Shown here: piece after piece, positions 15,708 through 46,627 of the stretch
Layout: each line of letters begins with the position of its first letter
Position numbering within the stretch: the stretch's first letter is position 1
NCBI GenBank assembly: GCA_963742335.1
Contig: CAVULL010000013.1
Coordinates: forward strand, 15,297 to 79,296
DNA: 64,000 nt
Direction: 5' to 3'
Source: an uncultured Verrucomicrobiae bacterium
GTDB lineage: Bacteria > Verrucomicrobiota > Verrucomicrobiia > Chthoniobacterales > JAFAMB01
Position numbers and translations under genes: made by a program
The notes under the pieces: generated by a model
Seen by the model: the letters and a program-made list of their open reading frames with translations, nothing else
Databases searched by the model: none
Told to the model about the DNA's origin: nothing

Positions 15708-15709
15708 CG

Positions 15710-30707: not shown

Positions 30708-31019
30708 GATCGGGGGATTTCCTTCAAAAGGAAAATTAAATGACGCCGCGAGGCCGGGTTGCCTTTCGGAAGATGAAGACCGCCCGCCGGAATTTGCAGG
30801 AAAAAGGGACTAAATGATGCTGTTGACATCCTTCAATAAAACACGATATCTCTACTCGCTTAGTAGGAGAATACCAGTCCTTTTTCCATCTGGAGCGAAT
30901 ATTAATTCTGGAAGGGTCAGCGACAAGAGGAGCCGAGGTGAGTTTGTCTCTCTGTCGCTCGGTCAAGGCTGGCCGTTGAGTGCTCTCGACTGTTTAAAAA
31001 ATTTAAATCGATTATCTAC

Positions 31020-32477
31020 ATGGCCGCTTTCGTGCAACCACCTGAAACCTCACAAAATCTCAAGAAAGACTATCTCTCGTACTCGGAGGTAATCGCCCAA
31101 TCGATTTCCGTCATTGCTCCCTCTACTGTTCCGGCAGCGATTCTGGGCTTAATCTTTGTCAGTGCCGGCAACGGTACATGGCTTAGCTTTCTCCTCGCCA
31201 CCATCGGGCTGCTCTTTGTCTGTTTTAACATCAACCAGTTTGCCCGGCGCTCGGCCTCTCCGGGTTCACTTTATACCTATATCGTCAAGGGGCTCGGGCC
31301 AATCGCAGGCGTTCTCAGCGGATGGGGATTGCTGCTTGGCTACATGGTCACGGGAATGTCAACGCTCTGCGGATTTGCGATTTTTGGTCGGATGTTGCTC
31401 GCACCGCTTGGGATCCATTTAGACGTTCTGGAGTTGTTTGCTCTGTGCGTCATCGTGTCTTATGGCGTCGCCTGGAGAGATATTAAGCTTTCGGCGAAGA
31501 TGATGCTGATCTTTGAGGGCGTCTCGATATTTTTTATCCTGGGCTTGGGGATAATTATCTGGATGCGCAAAGGTTTCGCCGTCGATGTGGCTCAATTAAC
31601 GCTTAAAGGCGCTACGCCGGGCGGCGTCATCACCGGGATCGTCCTCGCCGTCTTTGGCTTTTCCGGTTTTGAGAGTTCCACCGCTCTGGGGGACGAGGCG
31701 AAGGACCCTCTACGAACAATTCCGCGATCGCTCCTTCAGAGCACAGCTCTATCGGGAGTTTTTTTTCTCTTCATGGCTTACGTGATCGTTCTGGGCTTTA
31801 AAAACTCCGGAGTCGACCTTGGCAAGAGCGAGGCACCGCTCGCCATTCTTGCGCCGCAGACCGGCCTGGGTTTTCTGGGCACCCTGATTAATATCGGTGC
31901 ACTTCTAAGTTTTTTTTCCTGCACCCTTGCCTGCATCAATTCGACTTCCAGGATAATTTTTTCGATGGCGCGCCACGGTCTCTTCCACGATGCCTTCGGC
32001 GAAGCGCATGAGACAAACAAAACGCCCCATTTAGCTGTGGCCCTCTCTGCCTTAATTACGTTTCTCGTTCCTGCTGGAGTTTATCTTTCCGGGATCAATG
32101 CTTTTGATGCCCAGGGCTATTTTGGCACGCTCTGCAGCTTCGGTTTTTTGCTGGTCTACGTTCTGGTTTCGATTGCCGCGCCAATGTATCTTCGCACTCT
32201 AGGCAAGCTCCATCTAGCCCACCTATTCTACTCGCTGGCAGGAGTCGGTTTTATGCTCCTCCCTATTTTTGGCATGATTGGAATTCCTGGAAGCACTTTG
32301 TTTCCTCCCCCCTCCTTCCCTAACAATTTGCTGATCTGGATCTTCGTTGCTTATATGGCTGTCGGGTTTGTCTGGCTTTTGATCCAGAAAGCACGCTCTC
32401 CGAAGATGCTTCCGAAGATGAAGAGCTCGATGGATGAAATTGACCTGAAATTCGAAGACGTGGAGCACTTTTCCTAG
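31020..32477 (+). CDS. APC-superfamily amino acid/polyamine permease
   Basis: About 12 TMs. FSGFESSTALGDEAKDPLRTIPRS is the typical APC motif. Confidence 0.85.
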   Translation: MAAFVQPPETSQNLKKDYLSYSEVIAQSISVIAPSTVPAAILGLIFVSAGNGTWLSFLLATIGLLFVCFNINQFARRSASPGSLYTYIVKGLGPIAGVLSGWGLLLGYMVTGMSTLCGFAIFGRMLLAPLGIHLDVLELFALCVIVSYGVAWRDIKLSAKMMLIFEGVSIFFILGLGIIIWMRKGFAVDVAQLTLKGATPGGVITGIVLAVFGFSGFESSTALGDEAKDPLRTIPRSLLQSTALSGVFFLFMAYVIVLGFKNSGVDLGKSEAPLAILAPQTGLGFLGTLINIGALLSFFSCTLACINSTSRIIFSMARHGLFHDAFGEAHETNKTPHLAVALSALITFLVPAGVYLSGINAFDAQGYFGTLCSFGFLLVYVLVSIAAPMYLRTLGKLHLAHLFYSLAGVGFMLLPIFGMIGIPGSTLFPPPSFPNNLLIWIFVAYMAVGFVWLLIQKARSPKMLPKMKSSMDEIDLKFEDVEHFS

Positions 32478-32570
32478 TGCATCGCCTCCTTCCTCGCGCC
32501 CCCTTGAAGACTAGCAACGACGACGAGCAACGACTAACAATAGAGAGATCATCCCGAAAGCTGTCGGCTA

Positions 32571-33131
32571 AGGTAGGCGAACCGTCCCGGCCGCACCCTG
32601 AAGCCCCTTCAGGGGCGCTTCGCAAGGCACACGTTGGTTCAATGTACGAAGGTAACCCAGGGTGCAACGTAGCGAAAAGCAAGGCCGGCCGCCCTGAAGC
32701 CCCGGCTATGAACCGTTTTGAGCGGCTGAGCTATCTGGGCCCTTCGGGCCCTGCAGTTTGGACATCGAAGGGGGTCACTGCTTAAAGATCCCGCGGGACT
32801 TGCCCCTCGTTTAGTTGGGGAATGATTTATGCCCCGAAGGGGCTTCAGGACTCAGCCCAGGGTTTCAACCCTGGGAATTTGAAAATAAACGATTCGCCCT
32901 GAAGGGGCGAGAGGCTAGCAGATGAATCTCGCACCTATCGTTGCGCAAAATAGAGTGCGCAATTGAGAGGTGCTACAATTGGACTTTATTGCCGCGTTGT
33001 TATGTTCGATCTGCCGCCCCTTCAGTTTCAGGGCGAGGGCCCTTCGGGCCGTAGGATGACCGGCGCTAAACACGTACCAGGCTTCAGCCTGGGTTTTGGA
33101 ATTTAATTAAACGCCTCCAGCCGTGAAGGCG
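32571..33131. repeat. cluster of at least 8 short GC-rich stem-loops plus one REP-like half-site
   Basis: Examples: gggccc-ttc-gggccc (32737), gcccc-gaa-ggggc (32831), cccaggg-tttcaa-ccctggg (32856), cgccc-tgaa-ggggcg (32895), ccaggc-ttca-gcctgg (33077). Confidence 0.65.
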
Positions 33132-33204
33132 CTTCCGAAAAGCACCCGACCCCGGCAATTAACATCCCAAACACTCCTTCACTTCGCGCCATTCGGGGCT
33201 GCGA

Positions 33205-35871
33205 TCAAATTCTCCCACGGGTCGTTATTTCTGCACGCCGATCCGAGAAGCTACCGATGGGTGGTAGATACTCTATAATCCTATCTTTCTCCGCCTGGGC
33301 TTCGGCGACTTTGCGAAGGGGGAGAAGACCGTTAATGAGGGCGAAGACGGCGCCAATCTGGTTGAAGACCATCGAGTGCATGACGCCGAAGCCGGCCAGA
33401 AACGCCCCGCTGACGCAGATGATATTGGGAACGATTATCAGACCCCAACTCCGGTCGACATTGCGCTGAAGATCGTGTGAGATATCACGCAGGCTCAAGA
33501 GCTTGGTCAAGCTCTCTTCCATGAAAACGACCTGGGCGGTGTCGGTGGCGATCGTGGAAGCGCCGCGCAAGGAAATGGAAACGTTGGCTTTTTTCAGAGC
33601 GATTGAATCATTGATACCATCTCCAACGAAGCAGACCGTTCTGCCTTCTTTTTGCAAAAGTTCTACGTATTTGGCCTTATCCTGCGGGAGGACTTCCGCA
33701 AAGTAGCGGTCCATTCCTAATTTCCTGGCCAGCGTCCGAGTGGGACGATCGTGATCGCCTGAGATAATCGCCAGATGCTGAGCGCCGCGTTCCCGCAGTC
33801 CGTGGATAACAGCCATCGCTTCGGGCCGAGTCGCGGCGCACAGCTCGATCGCGCCCCCCAGCGCCCCGTCGACCGCTACCAAAATCAGGGAATTACCCTC
33901 TTCGTGGACATTTTCCATTTCGTGGTCGAGCTCAACCGGCAACGAGATGTTTTCGTGCTTCATGAACCGCGCGCTACCGACTCGGATGGTGTGACCGGCG
34001 ACATGGACGGTGATCCCGTAACCCACGTGATATTGTGACTCGTCCGTCCTGGCCATTGGGAGCCCAAGGGATTGGAATTTGGCCAGAATTGCTTTGGCGA
34101 TCGGATGGCTGAACTTGTCTTCCGCGGCGGCAGCCCATTGCAAGATTTGCAGTTCGGAGTGCGAGCCGAAGGTCAAGATGCGGCCTACTTCCGGCTGTTC
34201 TCGCGTGAGCGTCCCGGTTTTGTCGAAGAGAAACGTATCGACCTTCCGCATTAATTCCAACGCCCTTCCGTCCTTAACGAGAATGCCGTGCTGCGCGCAG
34301 AGGGTCAATGAAGTTAGCATGCCAAGCGGAGCCGCCATACGAATCCCGGTCCCCAAGTCGCAGTTAATGATGGCGGTGGCGCCGTTTAGACCGATGGTGC
34401 TGAGCCCCAAACTGGCCAGAGCCAGCGTCGGTATCACCGCTTTGTCGGCCAGTTCTTCGCCGTGCGATTGGGAGCGGAGTTTGTAACCGGCGGTGTCATT
34501 CAGAATCCGGGTCAGTTTGGCAGATGTGGTTTCGCTGCCCGTGGATGTCACCGCGACCTGGATTTTGCCGGCCAGCATAATGGTTGCCGCGAAAACCTTA
34601 TCGCCCTTAATCTTCTCCGCAGGCGCAGATTCACCGGTGAGAGCGTGCTGGTCGATCATCGCCATGCCGTCCACGATCTCCCCGTCCACAGGAATAGTCT
34701 CTCCGGTATGGACAATGATGATGTCATTGAGTTTTAGCCTCTCGAGCGGGATTTCAATCTCGATGCCTTCGCGATAGAGCCAGACGAACCGTGGCTGTTT
34801 GCCAAAGACGCTGAGAAGCATCTTTTTTGAATCGTCTTCGGTCTTCTTTAAGAGCTTGCGACCGAAACTCAGGCACCATGCCAGAACGGCGCCGGCAAAG
34901 ATCTGGCCGGTGCCGAGGCAAGTAATAACGACGATCGAATCGAGAACGTCGACTCCAAGTCGCTTCTCTTTAAAAAGTACTTTGTGGGCGCTTTTGAAAC
35001 TGGGAACGACTGAGTAAATGAAGACTCCCGCGCTGATGGGAAGAAATACCGGAGCGAGGAATTGGCTGGCCGCCGCCAAGCCGAGCGATGCGGTGGCCAG
35101 CGCGAAATCAAGATCGGTGGGAGTTGTTCCAAGTTGTTCCGATTTATGAAGTACCTCATCGAGAATTTCAACCAGTTGATGCTTTTGAATTTGCCGGTGA
35201 TTGTAATAAACCAGGACGCTCGCCGTCAGATCATTGGTGTGGTAGCTATCGACTCCAGGAACGCTCATCAATTCTCGCTCGATCGCCTGGCATAAGTCGC
35301 GTTTGCGGTGTAAGGCGACGTTTTGGAAGCGAATGCGTCCTTCAGTCTCGTGTTTGATTGACCAGGTCGAGAGAACCGTTCCATGTCGATAAACTCGGAC
35401 CACATTCTTTTTCAAATCGCGCAGGATATTGGGAAAAGACAGCGGCGATTGGCTAATCGAAGAATCGCCGTTTTGTGAAAAGAGGCGTGACATCTTTCCG
35501 ACGAATTCGCGTAGCGAAGTTTCAGCAGTGCGGATTGAGATTTCTGCGCGTTGCTTGCGACCGTCGATTTTCACGGATTTTACCTCAGAAGCGAGGAAGG
35601 CCCGTTCCATGAATTGGCGGGAGAATAAGCTGTGAGCATTAGAAAAAAGGGCAGCACTATGGATCTGAACGCGGCCAGATCCTGGAAAGGAAATTTGAAT
35701 ATCCCGAACTGGCGAAAGCGGAACGATCGGTTGGTGGCCGTTGAGCGCCACCGTTCGGATAGGCTGTCGCTTGGATCGGCGTGAGGCAGGGGCAACAGAA
35801 TCTTCGGAATTGATAGTCTTCGCCAGCACAAAAGCGGGAGAGGAAAGGGCAGATGTTTTTAGACGTAACAT
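33205..35871 (-). CDS. P1B-like P-type ATPase, catalytic motifs intact, non-canonical transport site (paralog P1)
   Basis: TGES (34627-34638), DKTGT (34210-34224), SHP, ISGD and GDGIND (33607-33624). The TM-site CPC is replaced by NCD. Two N-terminal HMA-like domains lack CxxC. Confidence 0.9.
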   Translation of the reverse strand: MLRLKTSALSSPAFVLAKTINSEDSVAPASRRSKRQPIRTVALNGHQPIVPLSPVRDIQISFPGSGRVQIHSAALFSNAHSLFSRQFMERAFLASEVKSVKIDGRKQRAEISIRTAETSLREFVGKMSRLFSQNGDSSISQSPLSFPNILRDLKKNVVRVYRHGTVLSTWSIKHETEGRIRFQNVALHRKRDLCQAIERELMSVPGVDSYHTNDLTASVLVYYNHRQIQKHQLVEILDEVLHKSEQLGTTPTDLDFALATASLGLAAASQFLAPVFLPISAGVFIYSVVPSFKSAHKVLFKEKRLGVDVLDSIVVITCLGTGQIFAGAVLAWCLSFGRKLLKKTEDDSKKMLLSVFGKQPRFVWLYREGIEIEIPLERLKLNDIIIVHTGETIPVDGEIVDGMAMIDQHALTGESAPAEKIKGDKVFAATIMLAGKIQVAVTSTGSETTSAKLTRILNDTAGYKLRSQSHGEELADKAVIPTLALASLGLSTIGLNGATAIINCDLGTGIRMAAPLGMLTSLTLCAQHGILVKDGRALELMRKVDTFLFDKTGTLTREQPEVGRILTFGSHSELQILQWAAAAEDKFSHPIAKAILAKFQSLGLPMARTDESQYHVGYGITVHVAGHTIRVGSARFMKHENISLPVELDHEMENVHEEGNSLILVAVDGALGGAIELCAATRPEAMAVIHGLRERGAQHLAIISGDHDRPTRTLARKLGMDRYFAEVLPQDKAKYVELLQKEGRTVCFVGDGINDSIALKKANVSISLRGASTIATDTAQVVFMEESLTKLLSLRDISHDLQRNVDRSWGLIIVPNIICVSGAFLAGFGVMHSMVFNQIGAVFALINGLLPLRKVAEAQAEKDRIIEYLPPIGSFSDRRAEITTRGRI

Positions 35872-35880
35872 TACGGCGGT

Positions 35881-36306
35881 TCAGGAACGAGGTTTCGGTG
35901 AGGAACGCTTCGATTTCTTGGACGAAACAGGCACCGCGGAACTCTTGCTCAGTTCATCCTTGGTCGCTTTGCGGGTTCCGCGCCGCGTGGCGCGTTCAGG
36001 CGCGCTTTGTTCCTGGCTTTCGCGGATTGCAGCGCGGGAGTGAGCTTTTCTTTCTGCGAGCCGATCTTCAAAAGCCTCTTTGTGCTCATGAATAGCTTGA
36101 GCCGCAGCGGAGTACAGATCGTCAAGTTTTTCGCGGCTCACTCGTATCCATGAAGAAAGTCTTCCGCGCAGATTTGGCCACCGCTTGTCGATTCCGCGCT
36201 GCAAACGAGCTCCTATTTCCGGACCGAAGACCATTGAACCGGAGTCGGTCTTTTTTTGGGGCTTCCTTTTCTTTTTTGAACCGCGGGTTGGAACTTTGGA
36301 AGACAT
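35881..36306 (-). CDS. small basic helical protein (S1), 141 aa
   Basis: ATG at 36306. Stop lies 10 nt before the P1 start. N- and C-terminal K/R/S tails (SKKKRKPQKK; SSKKSKRSSPKPRS). Confidence 0.5.
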   Translation of the reverse strand: MSSKVPTRGSKKKRKPQKKTDSGSMVFGPEIGARLQRGIDKRWPNLRGRLSSWIRVSREKLDDLYSAAAQAIHEHKEAFEDRLAERKAHSRAAIRESQEQSAPERATRRGTRKATKDELSKSSAVPVSSKKSKRSSPKPRS

Positions 36307-36402
36307 TGGGATTGACCTTAGAGAAACCGAAACGGGAGCATGGAACGAAGAAGATGATTTCTTCCGTTCCCGGCTGGCCGTCGGAGACGCTTCCTTGACA
36401 TC

Positions 36403-36549
36403 GCAGCAAAATAGAAAGCCTACTAAAAGAGTCAAGTTTTTCGTCGCTGCGCGGGAGGCCTATGAGCGATACTTTTCAGATCCTCGAACCAGTTATCACT
36501 AAATGGCCGCTACATCTTGACTTTGTAAGTAGCCTTTTTATTTTGCTGC
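36403..36549. promoter_or_regulatory. long-range inverted repeat in the divergent S1-P1 / P2 intergenic region
   Basis: gcagcaaaatagaaagcctact (36403-36424) against agtagcctttttattttgctgc (36528-36549), 20/22 complementary. A nested agtcaagt / tcttgact pair lies inside. Confidence 0.35.
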
Positions 36550-36624
36550 CAGATCGGGCGAGTGGTTGAGAATTCGCTGCGAACTAGCTGGTTTAACGAA
36601 ATACCACCCAAGGGTTAGCGCACG

Positions 36625-39393
36625 ATGTCCGTTAAAGTTCCGACCAAACGCAGATCCAAAAAGAGGCCAACGCTGGTCGCGGGGGCGCCGTTATTGAATC
36701 TCGAGGCTGTGGAGGAGCAATTTCAACCCCCGGCGGTATTTCCAAGGACTCGGATTGCCGGTGAGCACGACGGCGTAGCCATCTGGAGCGACGAGTTGTT
36801 TAGAGATCCCGTCACTCAATATCTTCGACAGTTTCTGTCGCGGGTCTTCATGCTGGAGGAGATATCGGCCGTTGAAATCGATCGCCGGGCCGGAGTAGGG
36901 CGCCTCAAATATGGATCGTCGGAGGACGCGCCTTCGATCTGGCGTGAGCTCAAGAGGGTGCTCACCCAGTCCACGAAAACTTATCTCGACCGTGAGGATG
37001 AAATTCGAAGTGAGTACCAGGCCACCGCCTCTGGAGTCGATCTATTGTACCTGGATGGACCACCAGCGCTGCCAATCCGGGTCGGTCGTGTCGGTTCTTC
37101 CCTCTCGACCTGGTACTTGCGCCTGCAGACTGAAGACCGCGTGCGACTCGCCCATCCTGTTCTGCGTAACCGCAAGGATGTCGCCTATCGGCTCGAAGAA
37201 GAGTTGACCGCCATCCTGGGTGTGCGCGCCTGCAGAACGAACATCTTGGCGTCCAGCGTGATCGTCCATTTCAATCCGCGCCGTCTCAATGTGGATCGAT
37301 TGATTCGCCACTTGGAAAATGCGTTACCCCGTTTGCTGAATGGCTTGGAGGGTCCGCCTCCAAGTCGACGGTTTTTCGCTTCTTCCACTTTGATCACGAC
37401 TTCTTTTGTCGCCCAGTTTTTTGTGCCGGCATTGCTTCCTTTTGCCGTGGCAGGAGTTGCCATCTATGGATTTTCAAATGTCCTCAGTGCTCTGAAATTG
37501 CTGGCTCACGGAAAGATTGGGCTCCCGGTTTTGTACACTGGAACGCTGACCTTTACTCTTTTAAGCGGTTTGCCCTTTTCAGCGTCGATGATGGCTCTTC
37601 TCATGCAATTGTGGCCTCGGTGGGCCTATCAGACGATGACCAAGAGCCAACGCCGCCTGTTTGCCACCCACCGACAGCGGGCGACTTGGGCGCGGCTTGT
37701 GCATGCCGACGGATTGGAGTTGGAAGTAGATATCGAAAGGCTGAAGGTGGGTGATACCATAGCGGTTCACGAAGGGGAAATTGTGCCGGTCGACGGGATC
37801 ATTTCAGCGGGTCTGGCGGCTGTCGACCAAGAGGCCCTGACCGGCAGGGCCGGTGCGTTGGATAAAGCGCCCGGCGACAGGGTGTACGCTTCCACGTTCT
37901 TGCGGGCCGGGCGAATCATGGTCAGGGTCAGCAAGTTGGGCACTGATACCCTGACTGGCTATATCGGTGAGCAATTGCCGCATGGGCGTATCTCACGTCT
38001 GCCTTCTTCCGCTGAGGCCGATGAAATTGCCAATCGAATGGTAGCTCCGGCTCTTGCTATTTCAGGTCTGAATCTGTTGCTTACGGGAATGGTATTGCCC
38101 TCACAGGCTACCATCCGCCCTGATTATGCCACCGGACCCCGCCTCAGCGCGCAGCTTGCAGCGCTCTATGCCCTCAGCGATGCGTTGCGCCGGGGCATTC
38201 TATTTCGCGATCCTGCCGCGATCGACCGGTTGCCGGCGACCGACATTTATGTCTTAGATGATTCGTCGGCGCTGACGCGCGGACGAATCGAAGTAGGAGA
38301 AGTGATTGCGGATGTGGACGTGCCGGCGAACATCGTTCTAAGTTACGCCGCCTCGGCTTTTCCAGCCTTTCAGAACGAGCGCGCTCGAGCCCTGCTCGAG
38401 CGATGCGCCAAGGATCGTGCGCCGCTTTTGGAAATCAGCGATCGTGCCCGGCAGGCAGGGTTGATTCGTTACCGTGACGATCGCGATCAATTGGTGGAGG
38501 TGGCTACTCCTGCCTATGTCGCCGCCAGCGGGGTTGAAATCCCTGCGGCGGTGGAGTCTGCCATCGCGAATTCGCCGACCGCATGGGCCCATCAGGGCGG
38601 TGGAGACGATCCGGAAGGAATTCCCCATGACGATCCAACGATGCGCCCTCTTTGGGTGTCGGTGAACGGCATCGTTTTGGGCGCCGTGACATTCCACCGA
38701 AAGGGCGAACCCGAAGCGACTGAAGTGATCGCGACCCTTCGAGCACGTAATCCGCGGGCCAGCTTTCTCTATATCTCGAGCAAACCTCAGTCTGAAGCTG
38801 AAGAAATAGGCCACAGAATCGGCGTCTTGACCTGCATCGGCGATCTCGACACCGAGGGCAAGGTTCGTATCCTGGAAAATCTCGGAAGGCGCACCATGTG
38901 GATTGGCAATGGTAGTTCGCCGGAAGCGCTCCCGTGTATTGCAGCTAGCACGGTCAGTATCTCGGTGGCGGGATCGCAAACTGTGCCTCATGATGCGGCA
39001 GACGTCATCCTGTTGCTTCCCAGCCTGCGCGGACTTGTCCCGCTGAGGCGCATCGGCCGGCTGCACCGCGCCTTGCTCAAGGATGGGTATCGGTCGGTGT
39101 TTGTGCTGAATCTGTTCTGCGTCGCCGGTGCCTTTCTGGGCGGGTTCGACACCTTGATTGTGGGGCTCACCACGAATTTCGGCACGGGTTACGTCTACAG
39201 AAATCATTTAAAACGGCTGAATGAGCTGATCTCTCGAATGGAGTCAAAAATGGCCACTGAACTCGGTCCGGAATCCGAAGAGCATGACCCGGAGGAGGGG
39301 ACTTCCGACGACGGCGCCCACGAGGTAGAAGAACACGAAGACTACAGCGAGCACGACCTCGATGCGGAGACTCCGCACGAACGGCCAGTGTAG
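36625..39393 (+). CDS. P-type ATPase-like protein with degenerate catalytic motifs (paralog P2)
   Basis: Same architecture as P1, but TGES is TGRA (37840-37851), DKTGT is DDSSA (38257-38271), SEHP is SAFP, TGD is ISS, and GDGxND is GNGSSP (38905-38922). Acidic C-terminal tail. Confidence 0.85.
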   Translation: MSVKVPTKRRSKKRPTLVAGAPLLNLEAVEEQFQPPAVFPRTRIAGEHDGVAIWSDELFRDPVTQYLRQFLSRVFMLEEISAVEIDRRAGVGRLKYGSSEDAPSIWRELKRVLTQSTKTYLDREDEIRSEYQATASGVDLLYLDGPPALPIRVGRVGSSLSTWYLRLQTEDRVRLAHPVLRNRKDVAYRLEEELTAILGVRACRTNILASSVIVHFNPRRLNVDRLIRHLENALPRLLNGLEGPPPSRRFFASSTLITTSFVAQFFVPALLPFAVAGVAIYGFSNVLSALKLLAHGKIGLPVLYTGTLTFTLLSGLPFSASMMALLMQLWPRWAYQTMTKSQRRLFATHRQRATWARLVHADGLELEVDIERLKVGDTIAVHEGEIVPVDGIISAGLAAVDQEALTGRAGALDKAPGDRVYASTFLRAGRIMVRVSKLGTDTLTGYIGEQLPHGRISRLPSSAEADEIANRMVAPALAISGLNLLLTGMVLPSQATIRPDYATGPRLSAQLAALYALSDALRRGILFRDPAAIDRLPATDIYVLDDSSALTRGRIEVGEVIADVDVPANIVLSYAASAFPAFQNERARALLERCAKDRAPLLEISDRARQAGLIRYRDDRDQLVEVATPAYVAASGVEIPAAVESAIANSPTAWAHQGGGDDPEGIPHDDPTMRPLWVSVNGIVLGAVTFHRKGEPEATEVIATLRARNPRASFLYISSKPQSEAEEIGHRIGVLTCIGDLDTEGKVRILENLGRRTMWIGNGSSPEALPCIAASTVSISVAGSQTVPHDAADVILLLPSLRGLVPLRRIGRLHRALLKDGYRSVFVLNLFCVAGAFLGGFDTLIVGLTTNFGTGYVYRNHLKRLNELISRMESKMATELGPESEEHDPEEGTSDDGAHEVEEHEDYSEHDLDAETPHERPV

Positions 39394-39480
39394 AGGGAAC
39401 CGATCGGCGTGAGCGAAAGCGGGTCAAGGGGGATTTCGGGCGGCTCGCTGACGAATCCTACACCCCTGCGGCGGTGGGGA

Positions 39481-41619
39481 CTAATCTTGCTCTTCGGTCT
39501 CGGCTCGATACAAGATGGTGCCAGATCGAACGTAGTCTGCCAGCATGCCAAGGTTGGTTAAGAGGACGGCGACAGAGGTCGGGCTGGCCAAAAAGAGTGC
39601 ACCGAAAACGGCAGCGAGATTTGGAGCCAGGCTAAGACGAAAACCGAGCTTGAATTCGTCGATCGCTTCCCTCGCGATGGCCCGAAGCTGGAGGATCTTG
39701 ATCAAATCCGGAGAAAGGAAAGCAATTGTACCTTTGCTGGTTTTGTTATAAGGCGCTTCCAATACGGAAATAGCCACGTCCGCCTGTTCAGCGACTGCGC
39801 CTTCCTTGCTGCAGTCTCCGACGTAAATGACCGAATGGCCGGCTCTTTGCCGTTCTTCAATATAAGCTCGTTTTGAGGCGGCGGAACTGTTCTCTCGAAC
39901 GACAAGGACGCCCAAACTTCCGGCCAGCTCTGCCGCGGATTTCTTGGAATCGCTTGAGAAAAAGATGATCTCGGTGAACCCCTGCTTGAGAGCCTGTTGA
40001 ACAAAAGTCTCCTGGCCGGTTTCGGGTGTCCGCCACCCGATGCTGTCGTCGAAAACGATCGAATCGCATCGAGTCAATTTTTCCAAATAAGAATTTCCCG
40101 AGATCACGATCCCACGGTTGGCGGCTCGGATTACGGTCGCCAAACCGGACATTTTTTCGGCAATTGCCGGCCCCGTCATGTAATCAGGGCGAATCGTCGC
40201 CTTGGCCATGGACAATCCTCCCTGCGCCAAGGCTGCTGCACCTAACAGAAGGATAGGCAAGGTAGTGCGATCTGCCAGATCGCCCGCATGGTGTTCAGAA
40301 TCCTGGCGCCGCAGGGCTTCACGATGATAAAGAGCAACACGCGCCACAGCGGTGTCGGCACCCACCGAGCTAATCTTTACCCGAACGGCCCCCTCCACGA
40401 TGCGACTCGCCGCGTAAATCGGATTTCCCGGGGTTTTGTAAATGTCATCTGCGGCACCGTTGAGGAATTCTTCATTTATTTGAGCAGAGCCGCTTACGAT
40501 GATCCCGTCGCCAGGAACGGTATCTCCCGCGGTGAGGTTCACGATGCTGGACGGTGATAGCTCTTCTAATCGCGTCTCGACCGAAGCCCCATCTCGCTCC
40601 ACCCAAACTCGACGCGGAAGACGGCGATATCGGGCGAGGAATTTCGCATGATGCAACTCGTATAGCTGCCCGGTCCTGCGAGGCCAAAACTGCATGAACC
40701 AGTACATCACTGCCGCTGGCAGGAATTCGAAAGTGATTGCCGTCAAAAGGGTGCTTGCGAGATAGAGAAGTTCGACCGTGAACTTGCCCTTACACAGAGA
40801 AATCACGGCGCGAGGGATGTATTTGAGACTGATGATGGTGGTCAACGCCAAATTGACTATACCGAGCGGAGGAAACAAAAAATCAGCAAAGGGGGCTAGA
40901 GCCAGATTTGTGTTGACCATCATCTCGGGCAATTTGGTCGCACGATGAGTCGAGCCTGAGGAAAGACATCGAGTCAGAACCGGATCCAAGACCTCCTGAA
41001 AAACGGCCGGATCTATCCGATGGGGCCGGACAAAAACCAGAAGCGAGTCGCCACCCGACAACAGAACAGAAAAAGATTGATGAACAACATCCGAAAGCGT
41101 GCCCAATTCGTTAAGAACTTCTTTCCGGACGACATCCGAGCGCAATAAGGGATGCGCTAATCTGTAGAATCTGGTCGACGGCATATCAATCCGCCAAAGT
41201 GTAAGACCTGAGCCGAGTCTGTGGATTTCAAAGGAAGAGAGACCTTTGTTGCGAAGGATAACTTCTTCGTGAAGAAGTGGCAGCGCGGCGGGCGGGCGTC
41301 CTCCCATCGCTGAAGAGAGCGCCGTCAGCACCTTGGCCGTCGAATTTGGATGCGCGGCGAATTCTAAGTGGACCTGACCCTTGCGCCAATTGAGCCGCAA
41401 AGATTTAAGCGATGAAATGGAGAAAAAGCGATTGATCAGCTGTCGTCGCGTAGGCACCTTGGCGGCCTCGGCGATTGACTCCCCAGAAAGGAGTAAAACC
41501 GGTTCGCTGCCCAGAACCTGAATCCGCAAACCGGGCAATAAAACTTCCTCGAGGGGTAAAACCCCAGTTCGCGGACGGCTCTTCTCGGGGATTACGGCAA
41601 TCTCTCGCGAGGTGGACAA
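39481..41619 (-). CDS. P-type ATPase-like protein, degenerate motifs and no N-domain (paralog P3)
   Basis: TGES is NGAA (40450-40461), DKTGT is DDSIG (40036-40050), and GDGxND is GDCSKEG (39799-39819). Only about 20 aa separate the DDSIG site from the SSD (TGD-equivalent) motif. Confidence 0.85.
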   Translation of the reverse strand: MSTSREIAVIPEKSRPRTGVLPLEEVLLPGLRIQVLGSEPVLLLSGESIAEAAKVPTRRQLINRFFSISSLKSLRLNWRKGQVHLEFAAHPNSTAKVLTALSSAMGGRPPAALPLLHEEVILRNKGLSSFEIHRLGSGLTLWRIDMPSTRFYRLAHPLLRSDVVRKEVLNELGTLSDVVHQSFSVLLSGGDSLLVFVRPHRIDPAVFQEVLDPVLTRCLSSGSTHRATKLPEMMVNTNLALAPFADFLFPPLGIVNLALTTIISLKYIPRAVISLCKGKFTVELLYLASTLLTAITFEFLPAAVMYWFMQFWPRRTGQLYELHHAKFLARYRRLPRRVWVERDGASVETRLEELSPSSIVNLTAGDTVPGDGIIVSGSAQINEEFLNGAADDIYKTPGNPIYAASRIVEGAVRVKISSVGADTAVARVALYHREALRRQDSEHHAGDLADRTTLPILLLGAAALAQGGLSMAKATIRPDYMTGPAIAEKMSGLATVIRAANRGIVISGNSYLEKLTRCDSIVFDDSIGWRTPETGQETFVQQALKQGFTEIIFFSSDSKKSAAELAGSLGVLVVRENSSAASKRAYIEERQRAGHSVIYVGDCSKEGAVAEQADVAISVLEAPYNKTSKGTIAFLSPDLIKILQLRAIAREAIDEFKLGFRLSLAPNLAAVFGALFLASPTSVAVLLTNLGMLADYVRSGTILYRAETEEQD

Positions 41620-41637
41620 ACTGAACTTCCTATCGCT

Positions 41638-42063
41638 TTAGCTCGCCGCGGCAGCACTAGCTTGAGAGGCCTTTGGAGTACCCTGCTTTGTGACACTCCG
41701 ACTTCTGCTTTTCGGTTTTGTTTTCGTTGCCCGTGCGGAAGAAGTGACGGGTTCCTCCTTCTTCTCGGCATGAGCCTTAATCTGAGCGTCTGTGGCACCT
41801 TGTTCCAAGCCCCGTCGCAATGAATTTTCCTCGGGCAATAGTTCCGTCAGATAGACGGTACTGTAGACCAACCCATAGGAAACCCAATAGGCGGTATTGT
41901 ACACTCCCCCCGCAAATACTTTTCGCGTAGCTTGCGCCGCTTCCTTTGCCGACTGACGGGCAACGGTAGAGCCTTCCTCGAATCTCTCAGCGGCAGATTC
42001 CAGCGCCTCTCCCAAAGCGGAGAACGCATTGGTCTCCGCGGCCTTTTCTGTTTTTGTACTCAT
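41638..42063 (-). CDS. small protein (S2), 141 aa, with a central hydrophobic/aromatic segment and a basic tail
   Basis: ATG at 42063 (MSTKTEK). Stop lies 18 nt before the P3 start. Hydrophobic segment VFAGGVYNTAYWVSYGLVYSTVYL. Tail TKTKPKSRSRSVTKQGTPK. Confidence 0.55.
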   Translation of the reverse strand: MSTKTEKAAETNAFSALGEALESAAERFEEGSTVARQSAKEAAQATRKVFAGGVYNTAYWVSYGLVYSTVYLTELLPEENSLRRGLEQGATDAQIKAHAEKKEEPVTSSARATKTKPKSRSRSVTKQGTPKASQASAAAAS

Positions 42064-42191
42064 AAATTCTCGCTTGGAATTACCTTGGTGGCATGACAGG
42101 TGCAATCGATATTTTTGGTTCTTCGAGCTGCGGCGTCTTTACTGGGATGAGATAGATTTCAGAAGATCGAAATGACCTGGTCGATCGTTCA

Positions 42192-43346
42192 TTAAGTTCT
42201 AGCTTGTAATAAAAGTGGGGACGAATAATTCAAACTTGGATTCGGTTTTTTTATGGTGAATGGATTTCGTCTGCTCATTTCTTCTCGGAGCCGGCTGGCA
42301 ATCTCTTCGGCCGTCGGGCTATTGTTAGGATTGTCCCTGATCAGGTAAGAGATGGCTGCGATATGAGCTTCACCAAATGCGGTGGTGAATACACCTGCCG
42401 TAATCCCTGAAATGAGTCCATGAAGGATAGGGCCTGCCCCCGGAATTAAAAGCAAGAACGCGCCCAGGAACGAACGCCCCACCAGGGTTCCTCCGCCTCC
42501 CGCCAAAGTAGAACTGACCAGTGTCGCAAAAAAGCCGGTATCAACGGGTAACCCGAAGGTGGCGGTAATGCTAGCCAGCATCGAAATCTGAATGGGCACC
42601 AGGAGATAGGCGTCAGCGAAAGGTATCGGAAACGCCCCGATACCGGAAGCTGCGGTTGCCGCGCTTGCCACGATGAGATGAGCCCTTTCTCTTTTTAGCC
42701 GCAGCGTGACTTTCTGCGCTGCCGCAAAGGCATTCTTTTGACCCTCTGGAATAACGTGCATGGTCCACTCGACGAGGTCCGTCAAATTCATCGGAGCCAA
42801 GACATGTCCATCATCCTGCAGTTCCGGAATGGCCCGCACTCGAATAACATTGCTGGCTCTCGGCAGCAGTCGGTGGACCTCGGATCGAAAACCATTGTCT
42901 GCTCGCGACTTGGTGATGACCACCACGACAGGAATGTGCTTGGCCAGCAAATTCAGCAGCCTTATTTCGGCGTCCTCAATCCGCCTTCCGTCTTCCGAAA
43001 GGCAAAGCCAGGCGCAGTGAATATGGTCGTTAGCATCCTCTGACTGAGCCAGCCCACAGATGAGGTCCTCAAGCTCTTCGAGAGATTCTGGAAATCGGTC
43101 CAGCTCGAGACCTCGGGTATCGAAAATATAAAGCGGAATGCCCTTCTTTTTTATCTTTCTGGTATTTTTGGTCGCCGGTCTCCCGTGGCCGGTACTGGCA
43201 AAATTTCCTTGGAATACAGCGTTAATTAATGTGCTTTTGCCAACGCCTGTTTTGCCTGCTACCAGGAGGTTTACTCGCCCTCGCTTTCGAACTGCCTCCT
43301 TCAGCTGTTTCAACTGATCGTTAAGGATCGAGGCAAAATCATCCAT
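42192..43346 (-). CDS. P-loop GTPase with C-terminal DUF697-like membrane domain
   Basis: G1 GKTGVGKS (43233-43256), G3 DTRG, and G4 TKSR(AD). C-terminal Gly/Ala-rich hydrophobic region (AATAASGIGAFPIPFADAYLLVPIQISML) is typical of DUF697. Confidence 0.85.
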   Translation of the reverse strand: MDDFASILNDQLKQLKEAVRKRGRVNLLVAGKTGVGKSTLINAVFQGNFASTGHGRPATKNTRKIKKKGIPLYIFDTRGLELDRFPESLEELEDLICGLAQSEDANDHIHCAWLCLSEDGRRIEDAEIRLLNLLAKHIPVVVVITKSRADNGFRSEVHRLLPRASNVIRVRAIPELQDDGHVLAPMNLTDLVEWTMHVIPEGQKNAFAAAQKVTLRLKRERAHLIVASAATAASGIGAFPIPFADAYLLVPIQISMLASITATFGLPVDTGFFATLVSSTLAGGGGTLVGRSFLGAFLLLIPGAGPILHGLISGITAGVFTTAFGEAHIAAISYLIRDNPNNSPTAEEIASRLREEMSRRNPFTIKKPNPSLNYSSPLLLQART

Positions 43347-43598
43347 GGGAGTGATGTAAAAGAGCAGATCGATTTAAGCAAGATCAATTCCTACTAAAAA
43401 GATCTGCTTTGTCAAATTTTCTGCCCCCTCGATGAATCGTCGCCGTTCCGGAGACCGTGGGCCAAACAATGGAAAGCTCGGCTTTCCTGGCCTTCGAAAT
43501 CTATCGCCCACGCGAACCTGCCGCGTTGGCTAAACAATACCGCAACAGGCGGACAAACTGAGGCTCTTTACCTGAAAGCGCCGAAAGGTTCTTACCGT

Positions 43599-44375
43599 CT
43601 ATGGTCGGCCAAGTCCCAGAAAGGAAAACAACCCGAAGACCACACCCCCGAGCAGCGCCAGGGAAGCGATTCCCGCCACAACGCCTGTAAGAACCAATAT
43701 TCCGTCGTCCTCAACCAATCCCATCGCGATAATGAAGGAGGAGATCGCCTGCGGCATGTTGAAGCCCGGTATGGGAAATGCGATGGAAAGAGCGAGAATG
43801 AAAATGAAGACGCCCAAAAGCCGTCTTGCCAGGGGAGTCGTAGCCCATTTCCATCGCGGTTTCGATACTTTTTCCGCTTTCTCCAAAAGGGGAAGAATCG
43901 CGTGAATGGCGGCCGCCAAAGCTTTGCGCGGCACGCTCTTTTTTAGGATGAACTTCGGGAGTCTGATCTGCTTTTGGCCAGAGGCCATTTGGGCGGAAAT
44001 GACGGCGGTTGGGATCACTACGATCGCGGCTAAGCCTGGAACCGGTATCGGCACGACTTCAGGAATTGCGAAAAACATCAGCGAAGTTCCAAAAGAACTT
44101 TCGCCAATCGAATCAATGATCATTTCTACCGTGAATTCTTGAACATCTGGATTATTTGCTAAAAGATTTCGCAGGATTTGAGAAGTGCGTGATTTCGCCG
44201 GGCCGAGCACCTTCTTGCCGGAACTACGAGTTCCGTTCCGGGCAGCTTTTCCTTCCGCCGGAGAACTCTCACGGACGGCTGTTTTCTTTAAAGGTTTGCC
44301 GCGAGCAGACAACTTCTTGGTTTTAGTGCCGGGCTCGACCAGAGGATTGCGGGTTAGGGCAGCTGATGCGCTCAT
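43599..44375 (-). CDS. ExoD-family (exopolysaccharide synthesis) membrane protein with a 70-aa basic N-terminal extension
   Basis: FGTSLMFFAIPEVVPIPVPGLAAIVVIP and the C-terminal TMs are typical of ExoD. The N-terminus is K/R/S/T-rich. Confidence 0.8.
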   Translation of the reverse strand: MSASAALTRNPLVEPGTKTKKLSARGKPLKKTAVRESSPAEGKAARNGTRSSGKKVLGPAKSRTSQILRNLLANNPDVQEFTVEMIIDSIGESSFGTSLMFFAIPEVVPIPVPGLAAIVVIPTAVISAQMASGQKQIRLPKFILKKSVPRKALAAAIHAILPLLEKAEKVSKPRWKWATTPLARRLLGVFIFILALSIAFPIPGFNMPQAISSFIIAMGLVEDDGILVLTGVVAGIASLALLGGVVFGLFSFLGLGRP

Positions 44376-44516
44376 GAGGGTGTGGCTAAATTTCGGTTAT
44401 CATCGTGATCGGCCCCCGGGCTGTCAAGCGCGCGAAGAAGAGGAAAGAAAAATAGACTACCGAAATAGTATACAAATGTCGTTGCTTTTTGCAGGAGAAT
44501 CTGGGATGCTCCGCCT

Positions 44517-45116
44517 ATGCCAAGACGAAAGGTCGTTCTTAGTGGGCTGCTTGCCTTTGGAGCCGGCGTCGCGGTCGGAGCAAATTGGCCTAGAGCGGGT
44601 AACATCGTGGGATATATCCTGCAAAGGCTAGGCTTCGAACTGACCGACCTGACGTTATGGATGTGGGATCCGGAAAAATTGACCGACCAAGCCGAATTAG
44701 CCCTCCCCGTCGGAAGACCTAGGGCGAAGAAAAGAAGGCGCAGGACCCCTTCGGGTCAACCGGGCGGTCTCGCCGCCAGCCGCTCAAGAGCGAAGAAGAG
44801 CTCTGTTTCTCCGGGAACGCCGTCCGGTGCTGGGAACGGAGGAAACCGCAAAATCGCAGCCCAAACCTCAGAGGCCTGGATTCTTAATTCCCGATTATCG
44901 GGATCTCGTGCGTCCGGAATCGACACCCCTGAGCTAAGTTCGAGGACCGGGAAAGCGGCTTTGACCAAGCTGGACAATTCCGCCGTTCAGACGGTCCGTC
45001 GAAAGGCAAAAAATGCGGCGATCAATAGCAAACGAAAATCTCCTGTTGCTGGAAGCAACAGGAAAATCAGCGCGTTTTCTAAGAGTGCCTTACCTGTTAA
45101 TTCCGCTCTTAACTAA
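44517..45116 (+). CDS. hypothetical protein with an N-terminal TM and a long basic disordered tail
   Basis: VVLSGLLAFGAGVAVGANW followed by RPRAKKRRRRTPSG... low complexity. Confidence 0.45.
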   Translation: MPRRKVVLSGLLAFGAGVAVGANWPRAGNIVGYILQRLGFELTDLTLWMWDPEKLTDQAELALPVGRPRAKKRRRRTPSGQPGGLAASRSRAKKSSVSPGTPSGAGNGGNRKIAAQTSEAWILNSRLSGSRASGIDTPELSSRTGKAALTKLDNSAVQTVRRKAKNAAINSKRKSPVAGSNRKISAFSKSALPVNSALN

Positions 45117-45142
45117 CTCCCAATTCTTCTCCGCACGGATCG

Positions 45143-45457
45143 ATGAAAGAGAAGTTATACGATATACCTATTGACAAGCCGCTTACCTCTGCCAGACGTA
45201 AAGCGCTTAATCTGCACATCGTTCAAAACGTTTATTTAACTAATTCCCCGATAAGCTACCAATGGGACGAACTGGATGGGAAAGTGCTACACCTTACGGC
45301 CGAACCTGTGACATTTGAGGTGAGATTCCACACGAAAAAGGTCGAAATTTACGGGACTGCTCCGCTCTGGGCCCGGCTTCTACTGACGGCGAAGAAGAAA
45401 GCACAGCTCAAGCAGGAAATTCAATCGATTCTTTCTCTAACTGGTTTTTGTCGTTAG
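45143..45457 (+). CDS. small protein, possibly of the polyhydroxyalkanoic-acid-system family
   Basis: 104 aa. The C-terminal KVEIYGTAPLWARLLLTAKKKAQLKQEIQSIL resembles that family by memory only. Confidence 0.4.
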   Translation: MKEKLYDIPIDKPLTSARRKALNLHIVQNVYLTNSPISYQWDELDGKVLHLTAEPVTFEVRFHTKKVEIYGTAPLWARLLLTAKKKAQLKQEIQSILSLTGFCR

Positions 45458-45634
45458 TGGGGAGTCGAAGTCGGAGCCAAATCGGAGGTCTACCGGATGA
45501 CACCGGTAAACCCAAATTGGCTGTCCTAACTTTCCTCCACCGGTTGGCGGCGGTCTTTCCGTATGACCCTCCAACAAATGGCGAGTTACCCAGGCGAAAT
45601 CGTTGGTCTATATCCTAATCCACCGGAAAATGAC

Positions 45635-46627
45635 TTACATCGCCGACGCAACTCGCACTGCCACATCGCCGTATAATGCGGACTCCATTTCGACCTTGCA
45701 GATAACGCGTTCCTCTTCAGGGAAGAGAAGCGCCTTACGGTCCGCAAGGTAGTAGAACATCTCCATTCCCTCGGGCCATTGGAGCAGATCGGCTATTTTC
45801 ACGAGCATCTTTCTCTGCTCAATCGGGTCAAGCAGGGTGAAATTCCAAGCCAGCGTCGTGAGTTTAAGGATCATTTCCTTCGATTCGTAATCCGGTGCGG
45901 ACTCCAGCAGCGGTTCGGCTATCAGCCAGATCGCGTCGGAAACCTTTGGGCGACCCGGCGGATTGATCCGAACCTTCGTGCCGGGCTGACTGGCGCGGAG
46001 TCCAGCGGCCATCCGCTCGGGCCCTGTTCGACCGACAGGATCGGTGACGGCGCGTTCGCCGTTTTCCTCTTCGCCGTCGAGGGGCTCGAAGTCATCAGCG
46101 ACAACGATGTAATGGTAGCCGCCTTCGCCGCACCGGGCTTCGAGCGCGCGCAGAATTCTCCCGACGCTCGCCCGCGAGTCCGACGGCCCCTGGATGTAGA
46201 GTGGTTTGTCGTTTTCGCCGAACCTAAATTGTTCATCGCAGTCCGCCGTTGTGATGCCGCCGAAAACGCGGCTCGCCTTTTTATAATCGGCGCCCGGCGA
46301 AAACCCGAGTCCCCTGGCATAGCTGATCGCGTCCTCAGTCAACTTGCGCGCGGCGCCCGGCGTCATTCGGACCGAGTTCCCATCTGGGAAGAGCCGATCT
46401 ATAAGGCTTTCCTGGTAATCGGCAATACTGTGGAACTGACGGTAACCCGCGTCTTTCACACCCAGGCAAAATACGTCAAGCAGGAAAAACCCAGCCTCAA
46501 CGCGGCCGTCGGCCCTAAACCTGCTCACTACGAGATAGCCGCAGCCGGCCTCAAAAAGGTTGGCGGAACGCAAGGCTTCGGGAGAATGCTTCATATGGCC
46601 CTTAGATACAATATGTGGTGGTGGCAC
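45635..46627 (-). CDS. conserved-looking hypothetical protein
   Basis: 330 aa with balanced composition (GFFLLDVFCLGVKDAGY...). The opposite-strand 322 aa ORF is Arg-rich and looks like a shadow ORF. Confidence 0.6.
   Translation of the reverse strand: MPPPHIVSKGHMKHSPEALRSANLFEAGCGYLVVSRFRADGRVEAGFFLLDVFCLGVKDAGYRQFHSIADYQESLIDRLFPDGNSVRMTPGAARKLTEDAISYARGLGFSPGADYKKASRVFGGITTADCDEQFRFGENDKPLYIQGPSDSRASVGRILRALEARCGEGGYHYIVVADDFEPLDGEEENGERAVTDPVGRTGPERMAAGLRASQPGTKVRINPPGRPKVSDAIWLIAEPLLESAPDYESKEMILKLTTLAWNFTLLDPIEQRKMLVKIADLLQWPEGMEMFYYLADRKALLFPEEERVICKVEMESALYGDVAVRVASAM

Follow-up and report, generated by a model that had tools for sequence, protein, structure and literature searches.

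The stretch analysed here (hereafter the window), 64,000 nucleotides of contig CAVULL010000013.1 from an uncultured Verrucomicrobiae bacterium, encodes three divergent members of the P1B-type ATPases, designated P1, P2 and P3. The first retains the complete set of catalytic signatures; the other two have lost most of them, and P2 and P3 are nevertheless maintained proteins rather than decaying genes, since the same losses are shared across about 80 and 81 relatives, respectively, and the ratio of nonsynonymous to synonymous substitution rates (dN/dS) is low. As judged from their residues, both would lack ATP binding and the dephosphorylation loop while keeping a bare haloacid dehalogenase (HAD) pocket and a membrane site. 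P-type ATPases, one of the most thoroughly studied kinds of membrane machine, are usually treated as self-contained, one polypeptide binding ATP, phosphorylating itself and moving the substrate. Two look-alike families that would be unable to use ATP alone, kept for long under strong selection beside a working paralog, suggest that pump paralogs can turn into subunits, regulators or scaffolds, a course also taken by rotary ATPases, with their catalytic and non-catalytic subunits, and by ABC transporters in which one site is degenerate. The three genes are the following:

33205-35871, minus strand: P1, 888 amino acids, P1B-type ATPase with its catalytic motifs intact and a CoBaHMA (HMA_2) domain at the N-terminus
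36625-39393, plus strand: P2, 922 amino acids, full-length paralog without TGES, DKTGT, the ATP-binding residues and GDGxND
39481-41619, minus strand: P3, 712 amino acids with a TTG start, paralog with the nucleotide-binding (N) domain deleted, found in Verrucomicrobia only

A first-pass annotation of the same DNA had described these open reading frames (ORFs) as paralogs, one active and two with every catalytic signature replaced. The frames are found where it placed them, free of internal stops, and the motifs it listed are all present, although the example peptides it quoted for P1 and P2 turned out to be swapped. The paralogy is borne out by BLASTP, P1 and P2 sharing 27% identity over 869 residues (E 1e-86), with E-values of 9e-36 for P1 and P3 and 2e-37 for P2 and P3. 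Outside the P2 family, P2 has by far its closest relative in P1, at 266-285 bits, the other ATPases reaching no more than 122 bits.

The catalytically intact paralog P1

The ORF translation of P1 contains LTGESAP (TGES), FDKTGT (DKTGT), FSHPIA (SHP), ISGD (SGD) and GDGIND. It is matched by the Pfam families E1-E2_ATPase, Hydrolase and HMA_2 (the last at 45.9 bits), scores 407.6 bits against the NCBIfam P1B model TIGR01525, above the cut-off of 346, and has the CopA of A. fulgidus as its top match in the PDB (230 bits). Relatives were sought in 36 non-redundant P2 loci, obtained from a profile scan with the P2 alignment over one genome per GTDB species together with the encoding contigs; the window proteins were then compared by BLASTP with six-frame ORFs of these loci, a de novo clustering of all the ORFs being swamped by shadow ORFs in the GC-rich genomes. 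P1 orthologs, 58-86% identical, are present in 29 of the 36 loci, and in the ORFs of these loci every ortholog keeps DKTGT and GDGxND, all but three keep TGES, and all of them exhibit NCDLGTG in the fourth transmembrane segment (TM4). The predicted membrane site of P1, an unusual one, comprises N-C-D in TM4, an Asn in TM5 and MHSMxFNQ in TM6.

It should be pointed out here that P1B subgroups reportedly bear CPC, CPH, SPC or TPC as their TM4 signatures. No CPx-type motif of these kinds was found in TM4 of P1 (NCDLGTG), P2 or P3 (both RPDYxTGP), the corresponding sequence in CopA being ACPCA. Among the P1B ATPases the module would stand for a new subgroup whose membrane site is non-thiolate (N-C-D, N, N-Q). 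The sequence of P1 is best explained by a protein that binds ATP, autophosphorylates and pumps a cation, and its cargo is probably a divalent metal; a divalent metal rather than Cu(I) is suggested because of the chemistry of the site—one Cys, the Asp, the Asn and the Met-His-Ser-Met stretch—together with the acidic His-rich tail of P2 described below.

One Chthoniobacterales metagenome-assembled genome (MAG), locus L008, possesses a fourth paralog (14747-17323 of that locus, minus strand), P1b, which is 50% identical to P1, has DKTGT, TGES and GDGIND intact, reads NSEVGTG in TM4 and is encoded immediately upstream of P3, on the strand of P3 and following the small gene sB. In a neighbour-joining tree with bootstrap, the P1 clade received 99% and P1 with P1b 100%; the deep nodes received 0-25%, the distances being saturated.

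The degenerate paralogs P2 and P3

At the catalytic sites, P2 exhibits TGRA, LDDSSA (DDSSA), SAFP/FQNERA, ISS and GNGSSP, and P3 has NGAA, FDDSIG (DDSIG) and GDCSKEG, with RPDYMTGP in TM4 and TNLGT in TM6. In either paralog the Pfam family E1-E2_ATPase was matched and Hydrolase was not, and their TIGR01525 scores, 174.4 bits for P2 and 113.8 bits for P3, are below the cut-off that P1 passes. HMA_2 (PF19991) gave 28.4 bits with P2, just under its 30-bit cut-off, and most P2 orthologs already carry the PF19991 annotation; P3 yielded no match to PF19991, although it aligns through that region.

The AlphaFold2 (AF2) model of P2, based on an alignment with 27 orthologs, has a predicted local distance difference test (pLDDT) score of 79 and a predicted template modelling (pTM) score of 0.75. 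It is of the P1B fold, the best Foldseek matches being P1B ATPases (7r0g, E 3e-30), CopA (AfCopA, LpCopA), ATP7B and ZntA among them, together with KdpB. Two ferredoxin-like domains (residues 43-114 and 151-239) form the N-terminus, the second of them, with the RxR strand, showing the extra strand and the basic residues of the CoBaHMA fold; they are followed by four transmembrane segments, the actuator (A) domain, two transmembrane segments, the phosphorylation (P) and N domains and two final transmembrane segments, i.e. eight in total, with M4 broken exactly at R498-P499-D500. The single architecture proposed for all three proteins in the first-pass annotation therefore stands for P2, but not for P3, the N domain of which is deleted in all 81 members of its family.

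Glu, Asp and His are highly abundant in the C-terminal tail of P2 (residues 880-922, encoded at 39262-39393), e.g. HEVEEHEDYSEHD; the tail is disordered in the AF2 model and resembles the metal-binding tails of some metal transporters.

Concerning the conservation of P2, the search retrieved about 90 sequence clusters with 38-85% identity, 80 relatives being aligned in addition to the 27-sequence alignment. None of the 80 possesses TGES or DKTGT; the former site reads [ST]G[RAT][A..], Glu not being among its commonest variants, and the latter DD[ST]xx. The TM4 motif RPDYATGP is, on the other hand, almost invariant (R498 and D500 80/80, P499 77/80, Y501 78/80), as are N829 of TM5, found in all 27 sequences of the smaller alignment, and the TM6 motif SNxGT (N851 75/80, T854 73/80). 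The phospho-acceptor D545 is present in 80/80 sequences with Ser or Thr at the +2 position in 58/80, and within the 27-sequence alignment the motif-III K746 occurs in 26 and the motif-II Ser in 24. The first Asp of motif IV is kept by 67/80, the P2 of the window itself having an Asn there (GNG). Finally, QNERA represents a conserved motif of P2's own in the N domain.

The P3 search retrieved about 87 clusters with 34-76% identity, all of 670-750 residues. Among the 81 relatives examined, all without the N domain, RPDY[LF]TG, FDD[ST] and GDC are conserved, TGES and DKTGT occur in none, Glu again not being one of the commonest variants at the former site, and the phospho-acceptor D524 is kept in at least 95%. 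The idea that every catalytic signature had been replaced thus has to be narrowed: TGES, DKTGT, the ATP-binding motif and GDGxND are lost, but the acceptor Asp, the motif-III Lys and the first Asp of motif IV remain. "Dead" may therefore mean "not autonomous" for P2 and P3, because the paralogs keep a possible phospho-acceptor pocket.

The suggestion that both are maintained, and not the product of strain-specific decay, is supported by the uniform absence of TGES and DKTGT in their relatives and, moreover, by purifying selection. Compared with the orthologs in four Verrucomicrobia loci (L005, L006, L008 and L011), dN/dS was 0.09-0.14 for P2, 0.11-0.14 for P3 and 0.07-0.09 for P1; these values, obtained by the Nei-Gojobori method, are rough, dS being near saturation, yet dN is far below dS.

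A peptide KVPT[KR] followed by basic residues is shared by the N-terminal parts of the small protein sA (residue 47), P2 (residue 4) and P3 (residue 54), these three accounting for three of the four six-frame matches in the window; it was set aside, not being conserved in the orthologs.

Distribution and gene neighbourhood

The P2 loci cover Verrucomicrobiota (Chthoniobacterales, Methylacidiphilales, "Spartobacteria" and strain LW23), Alphaproteobacteria (Methylocella silvestris BL2, a Beijerinckia-like contig, Methylopila, Hansschlegelia, Xanthobacter, Lichenihabitans, Acetobacteraceae and Neomegalonema), the gammaproteobacterium Azomonas macrocytogenes, Myxococcota and Candidatus Binatus (Binatota), the closest to the window being Chthoniobacterales/Verrucomicrobiae MAGs with 79-82% identity, which marks the window as verrucomicrobial. 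In public annotation the P2 and P3 relatives are labelled "hypothetical protein" or as a generic ATPase. Every P2 ortholog of the loci is without the catalytic motifs and has RPDY.

The conserved cluster spans approximately 27931-45457, so that the extent flagged originally (33205-43346) was too small. Counted over the 36 loci, its constituents are an ExoD-family membrane protein (32), P1 (29), sB (29), an APC-superfamily permease (28), the small protein o104 (19), a sulfate-binding protein within 10 kb of P2 (12), a SulP-STAS permease (11), P3 (4) and a GTPase (3). Of the arrangement P1, P2, P3 and GTPase that had been suggested for neighbourhood searches, the P1/P2 pair proved to be co-conserved—P1 occurs in 16 of the 17 P2 loci having at least 8 kb on both flanks—whereas P3 and the GTPase are lineage-specific. 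When P1 was used as the seed, 4/4 loci, including those of Methylocella silvestris BL2 and Xanthobacter oligotrophicus, held a P2-like gene together with ExoD and the permease. All three paralogs occur together in the Verrucomicrobia loci L005, L006, L008 and L011, and P3, the GTPase with DUF697, sA and o199 are Verrucomicrobia additions that do not belong to the core. P1 and P2 are separated by 62-7754 bp, half of the pairs having divergent promoters. The link with sulfate takes two forms, the sbp-sulP operon in the window and CysT, CysW and CysA inside the Xanthobacter module.

The P2 of the window is 54% identical to that of the verrucomicrobial strain LW23, 56% to that of an alphaproteobacterium and 55% to that of Binatus; because identity between phyla is as high as within phyla, the sequences suggest that the module moves horizontally as one unit. 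No P2 ortholog was found on the plasmids of PLSDB. The presence of culturable hosts, i.e. Methylocella silvestris BL2 (module at about 3,116,000-3,126,000 of CP001280.1), Xanthobacter, Azomonas macrocytogenes and Methylopila, should make experiments feasible.

It should be noted that a few loci exhibit peculiarities of their own. In the close relative L006, a group II intron match (13770-13846, plus strand) is located between P2 and P3, and the P2, permease and ExoD genes of this MAG are split, probably by long-read sequencing errors. On the chromosome of Chenggangzhangella methanolivorans CHL1 (L031), P1, P2 and the permease are each broken into several ORFs; either the entire module is decaying there or the assembly contains indel errors. 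OsmC genes adjoin the module in the Beijerinckiaceae loci L003 and L037, with HdeA genes also in the former and a TerC gene in the latter, and acidic soils of peat or bog are the source of many hosts; these neighbours and habitats may hint at stress or pH homeostasis.

Other genes of the cluster

The remaining genes of the cluster are, in order:

27931-29685, minus strand: SulP-family anion permease with a STAS domain (Pfam Sulfate_transp and STAS; TIGR00815, 353 bits)
29682-30707, minus strand: periplasmic sulfate-binding protein of the Sbp/CysP type (PRK10752, 320.9 bits at a cut-off of 288; PDB 1sbp, E 1e-85)
31020-32477, plus strand: APC-superfamily permease (Pfam AA_permease), core member of the module
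35881-36435, minus strand: sA, small protein of basic character, in one operon with P1 and 9 bp upstream of it
41638-42105, minus strand: sB, small helical protein with a hydrophobic helix bearing GxYxxAYGxSYGxVF
42192-43346, minus strand: GTPase with an MMR_HSR1 P-loop domain and a C-terminal DUF697 membrane domain (Pfam), in the sB-P3 operon
43599-44375, minus strand: ExoD-family membrane protein (PF06055, E 5e-49), core member of the module
44517-45116, plus strand: o199, between ExoD and o104, in Verrucomicrobia only, with homologs in five loci
45143-45457, plus strand: o104, small conserved protein

The sbp and SulP genes form one operon, with an overlap of 4 bp between sbp and the start of the SulP gene, and the same pair (27931-30707 in the window) was found again in other phyla. 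Taken together, the two proteins would be a binding-protein-dependent SulP secondary transporter, of which, to our knowledge, none has been characterised. The APC permease copies are 54-68% identical across phyla, the closest solved structures, GkApcT and CAT1, being matched at only E 1e-8. The module provides a testable context both for the ExoD family and for a SulP transporter linked to a binding protein.

With regard to the small proteins, sA probably starts at M44 (about 36306); its homologs, 36-55% identical, adjoin P1 in six loci and are weakly conserved (dN/dS 0.3-0.46). The protein sB, encoded 18 bp upstream of P3 in the window and elsewhere usually after the APC permease, has 204 representatives at E<=1e-3, with GxxxG in 39/60 and its second Gly in 59/60 of the relatives compared, and its AF2 model consists of three helices (pLDDT 74). 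Orthologs of the GTPase, 87-89% identical (dN/dS 0.06), were found in L005 and L006 only. As for o104, its gene directly follows ExoD in L037, L003 and L039, and overlaps it in Methylocella. No Pfam or NCBIfam family was matched by sA, sB, o104, o199 or o330, even at E=5, and among the longer relatives of sB and P2 no informative gene fusion was found save for one with an Xre-HTH domain. Just past the cluster, a SNF2-type helicase with an N-terminal DUF5710 (46805-48613, plus strand) is seemingly unrelated to the module.

Non-coding elements of the window

An 8-mer, CCTACTAA, occurs four times in the window, as against 0.49 expected, four copies being reached in none of 100 shuffles:

36419-36426, plus strand: CCTACTAA, in a promoter-like gap of the cluster
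30860-30867, minus strand: CCTACTAA, in a promoter-like gap of the cluster
43390-43397, plus strand: CCTACTAA, in a promoter-like gap of the cluster
19530-19537, minus strand: CCTACTAA

One copy is retained in L005, 32 bp upstream of the GTPase gene, and the 8-mer is possibly a shared cis regulatory element. The convergent spacer of 727 bp between the permease and P1 (32478-33204) is packed with short GC-rich palindromic units, e.g. GCCCCGAAGGGGC, CCCTGAAGCCCC and GGGCCCTTCGGGCC, in direct and inverted copies, resembling repetitive extragenic palindromic (REP) elements. The sole Rfam match within 27000-47000, Acido-Lenti-1 (32830-32875, minus strand; 41.4 bits at a gathering score of 37), is located 330 nt downstream of the P1 stop and overlaps one copy of the GC-rich hairpin repeat; it was discarded as a clue to the substrate, being absent from seven orthologous loci.

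Possible roles of P2 and P3

Based on the above results, it appears conceivable—and this is the reading we favour, although tentatively and with somewhat less than even confidence—that P2 and P3 are non-catalytic partners of P1, either in a hetero-oligomeric pump or as paralog-derived regulatory or scaffold subunits, their physical association with P1 being what we infer. The reading is preferred because both paralogs retain the membrane site, the basic N-terminal domain, the A/P scaffold and the acceptor Asp, and because P2 is inherited nearly obligatorily with P1.

The system would accordingly represent a conserved, horizontally spread membrane-transport module, with a single autonomous pump at its centre and one or two paralogs that are not autonomous. 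P1 would be the motor pumping a cation, the direction of transport being presumed. P2 would have derived from the branch of P1 and P3 would have arisen in Verrucomicrobia. Neither has kept the residues for ATP use (P3 not even its N domain) or the TGES loop, and of DKTGT the K, G and T are gone in both. What selection has preserved is the N-terminal CoBaHMA domain, which is basic, the folds of the A and P domains, the acceptor pocket (the Asp, the motif-III Lys and GD) and an invariant membrane site of R-P-D-Y in TM4, N in TM5 and NxxT in TM6. By analogy with Lys693 and Asp714 of ZntA, the Arg of RPDY could be a built-in counter-charge to the TM4 Asp. P2 and P3 would act with ExoD and o104, with the APC permease and sB and often with a sulfate importer. 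That the pump belongs to a larger unit of transport is shown by the recurrence of sulfate importers, ExoD and the APC permease in its neighbourhood.

Several observations weigh against a partnership of this kind. The constraint on the paralogs is looser, the conservation being 36-82% for P2 and P3 as against 58-86% for P1, and the neighbour-joining tree lends no support to any deep branching order of P1, P2 and P3. Locus L003, the Beijerinckia-like contig and the one exception among the 17 fully flanked loci, has P2 in two copies but lacks P1 within 10 kb; Beijerinckia indica encodes a P1 ortholog besides its P2 homologs. The co-location of the genes would also fit separate steps of one pathway, and the Rfam scan of 27000-47000 revealed no riboswitch, leader RNA or recognisable regulator site hinting at the substrate.

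Some of the same observations would suit proteins not bound to P1 at all, i.e. membrane proteins derived from a pump and turned into channels, carriers or ligand sensors that need no ATP and serve the substrate or pathway of P1, in which the RPDY/N/NxxT site works while the cytoplasmic domains gate or signal. The best conserved residues of P2 and P3 indeed lie in the membrane site and the CoBaHMA domain, at no known oligomer surface, the spacing and orientation of P1 and P2 vary, L003 has its two P2 copies with no P1 nearby, and QNERA in the P2 N domain suggests a new ligand or partner. Such independence is nevertheless rather unlikely, P1 and P2 being co-inherited nearly everywhere, whichever gene seeds the search, and the whole A/P machinery with its acceptor pocket being hard to explain in a passive channel; moreover, we know of no P-type ATPase acting as a channel without ATP turnover.

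The acceptor pocket would be accounted for if P2 and P3 were non-autonomous phospho-switches, their invariant Asp being phosphorylated in trans, either by the N domain of P1 or P1b in a complex or by a small phosphodonor, so as to drive or gate the membrane site with no need of an ATP-binding domain of their own. The HAD core is kept in both families, as described above for the acceptor Asp, the +2 Ser/Thr, the motif-II Ser, the motif-III Lys and the motif-IV Asp; P3 keeps the pocket even without any N domain, and in L008 the active P1b is encoded directly upstream of P3. On the other side, the Lys, the Gly and the second Thr of DKTGT, the Glu of TGES and the ND of motif IV are all lost, the motif-IV Asp is replaced by Asn in the window P2, and, as far as we know, the lost residues contribute to phosphoryl transfer in every P-type ATPase studied, while no protomer of a P-type ATPase has ever been shown to phosphorylate another. 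A switch of this type is therefore considered quite improbable.

A broader and markedly doubtful possibility would be that the module builds a membrane-bounded compartment, of a kind not yet described, for ion storage or biomineral formation in aerobic soil bacteria, akin to ferrosomes and to the carbonate granules of cyanobacteria. P1 would then load the cation and Sbp-SulP, or CysTWA in Xanthobacter, would supply the counter-anion, while P2, P3, sB and the GTPase of Verrucomicrobia would be responsible for scaffolding, sorting or membrane shaping, the basic CoBaHMA domains recruiting them to anionic lipids.

Finally, that P2 and P3 should lack any function, whether as pseudogenes of recent inactivation or as artefacts of annotation, as their missing canonical motifs and uninformative public labels might suggest, is hardly credible in view of about 170 clusters of full-length open frames that reach down to 34% identity and share both the substitutions and the new invariant motifs, the low dN/dS of both families, the confident AF2 model of P2 and the synteny across phyla.

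Relation to known systems

By their sequences, P1, P2 and P3 are placed in the CoBaHMA or "R-rich" branch of the P1B ATPases, next to subgroup P1B-6 represented by FezB of the ferrosomes. The signatures D[YF]SCA and HNxxT have been described for P1B-6/FezB, together with an "R-rich motif" in FezB and related ATPases (Grant et al., 10.1101/2020.01.10.902569). Many of the next matches of P2 after P1 (P0095-P0120, about 93-97 bits) exhibit D[YF]SCA, HNxxT and an N-terminal RGRIR, three other ATPases without the FezB signatures scoring slightly higher against P2 (107-122 bits), and P1 aligns with one FezB-like protein along 676 residues, at 29% identity and 255 bits, starting in the N-terminal R-rich strand (HExxGRIRF). 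This strand is shared, P1 having HETEGRIRF and the FezB-like protein HEVRGRIRF, with DRVRL in P2. None of the three paralogs, however, conforms to the P1B-6 signature (D[Y/F]SCA in TM4, HNxxT in TM6), P1 having CDLGTG and FNQIG, P2 PDYATG and SNxGT, and P3 PDYxTG and TNLGT. In the joint alignment, the TM4 sequences are NCDLGTG in P1, RPDYxTG in P2 and P3, V-D-[YF]-S-C-A in the FezB-like proteins and ACPCA in CopA, an Asn is found in TM5 of all of them, and TM6 reads FNQIG, SNxGT, TNLGT and HNxxT in P1, P2, P3 and the FezB-like proteins, respectively. The TM4 Asp and the Asn residues of TM5 and TM6 are thus common to FezB and the three paralogs, the Tyr and NxxT only in part.

The fez clusters contain small hydrophobic proteins of the GxxxG type, which sB recalls, and, in some of them, a second P1B-like protein, FezH, for which, unlike P2 and P3, catalytic death has not been reported. 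FezB itself is reported with six transmembrane segments, as against eight in the P2 model, and the partners differ, with ExoD, the APC permease and sulfate uptake here and hosts that are mostly aerobic soil bacteria; neither a FezC-like protein (HMA with two transmembrane segments) nor a Feo, Fur or ferritin-like gene was seen in the cluster or the related loci examined.

With the canonical P1B ATPases, such as CopA, ZntA and CadA, the paralogs share eight transmembrane segments and N-terminal ferredoxin-like domains; P1 passes the P1B model with all its cytoplasmic motifs, and the P2 model superposes on AfCopA, ZntA and LpCopA. The CPx motif of TM4 and the N-terminal CxxC are, by contrast, missing here, the N-terminal domains being of the CoBaHMA type. 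KdpFABC, the KdpB of which is among the structural matches, represents a P-type ATPase working only in complex with a transporter-like subunit; no gene for the channel-like KdpA, for KdpC or for KdpF was found in the window cluster or the related loci, and the partner candidates here are unrelated. By analogy, a second path through the membrane could be supplied by the APC permease or by P2. A Kdp-like arrangement with the APC permease as the entry subunit, for which the co-location of the genes alone speaks, was consequently not adopted and serves only as an analogy.

Besides FezH, the nearest precedents are plant PH1 with PH5 and the FUPA24 fusions. The plant protein PH1 keeps its catalytic motifs, and FUPA24 reportedly joins two ATPases in one chain, a dead one of type I and a live one of type II. 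PH1 (P3B) shows no transport of its own and boosts PH5 (P3A) (PMC10654040), and FUPA24 (CtpH/CtpI) has a long extra N-terminal part, the functional motifs being confined to the C-terminal half (PMC3573892). FUPA24 is, however, a fusion, whereas P2 and P3 are separate genes, and in neither PH1/PH5 nor FUPA24 does one find two dead paralog families that are independent and widely conserved, or an entire N domain lost. Literature searches returned no paper on dead P-type ATPase paralogs beside an active one, on PF19991 ATPases or on ExoD with pumps, though an earlier survey may mention these proteins.

The CoBaHMA domain (HMA_2, PF19991) was first seen in calcyanin, a marker of intracellular carbonate formation in cyanobacteria (PMC8890360, 10.1101/2024.07.07.602159). 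In the module described here, the domain is fused to pump-like proteins, with a second ferredoxin-like domain ahead of it, and the CoBaHMA or "R-rich" domain of the ferrosome and calcyanin proteins is thereby linked to a third system.

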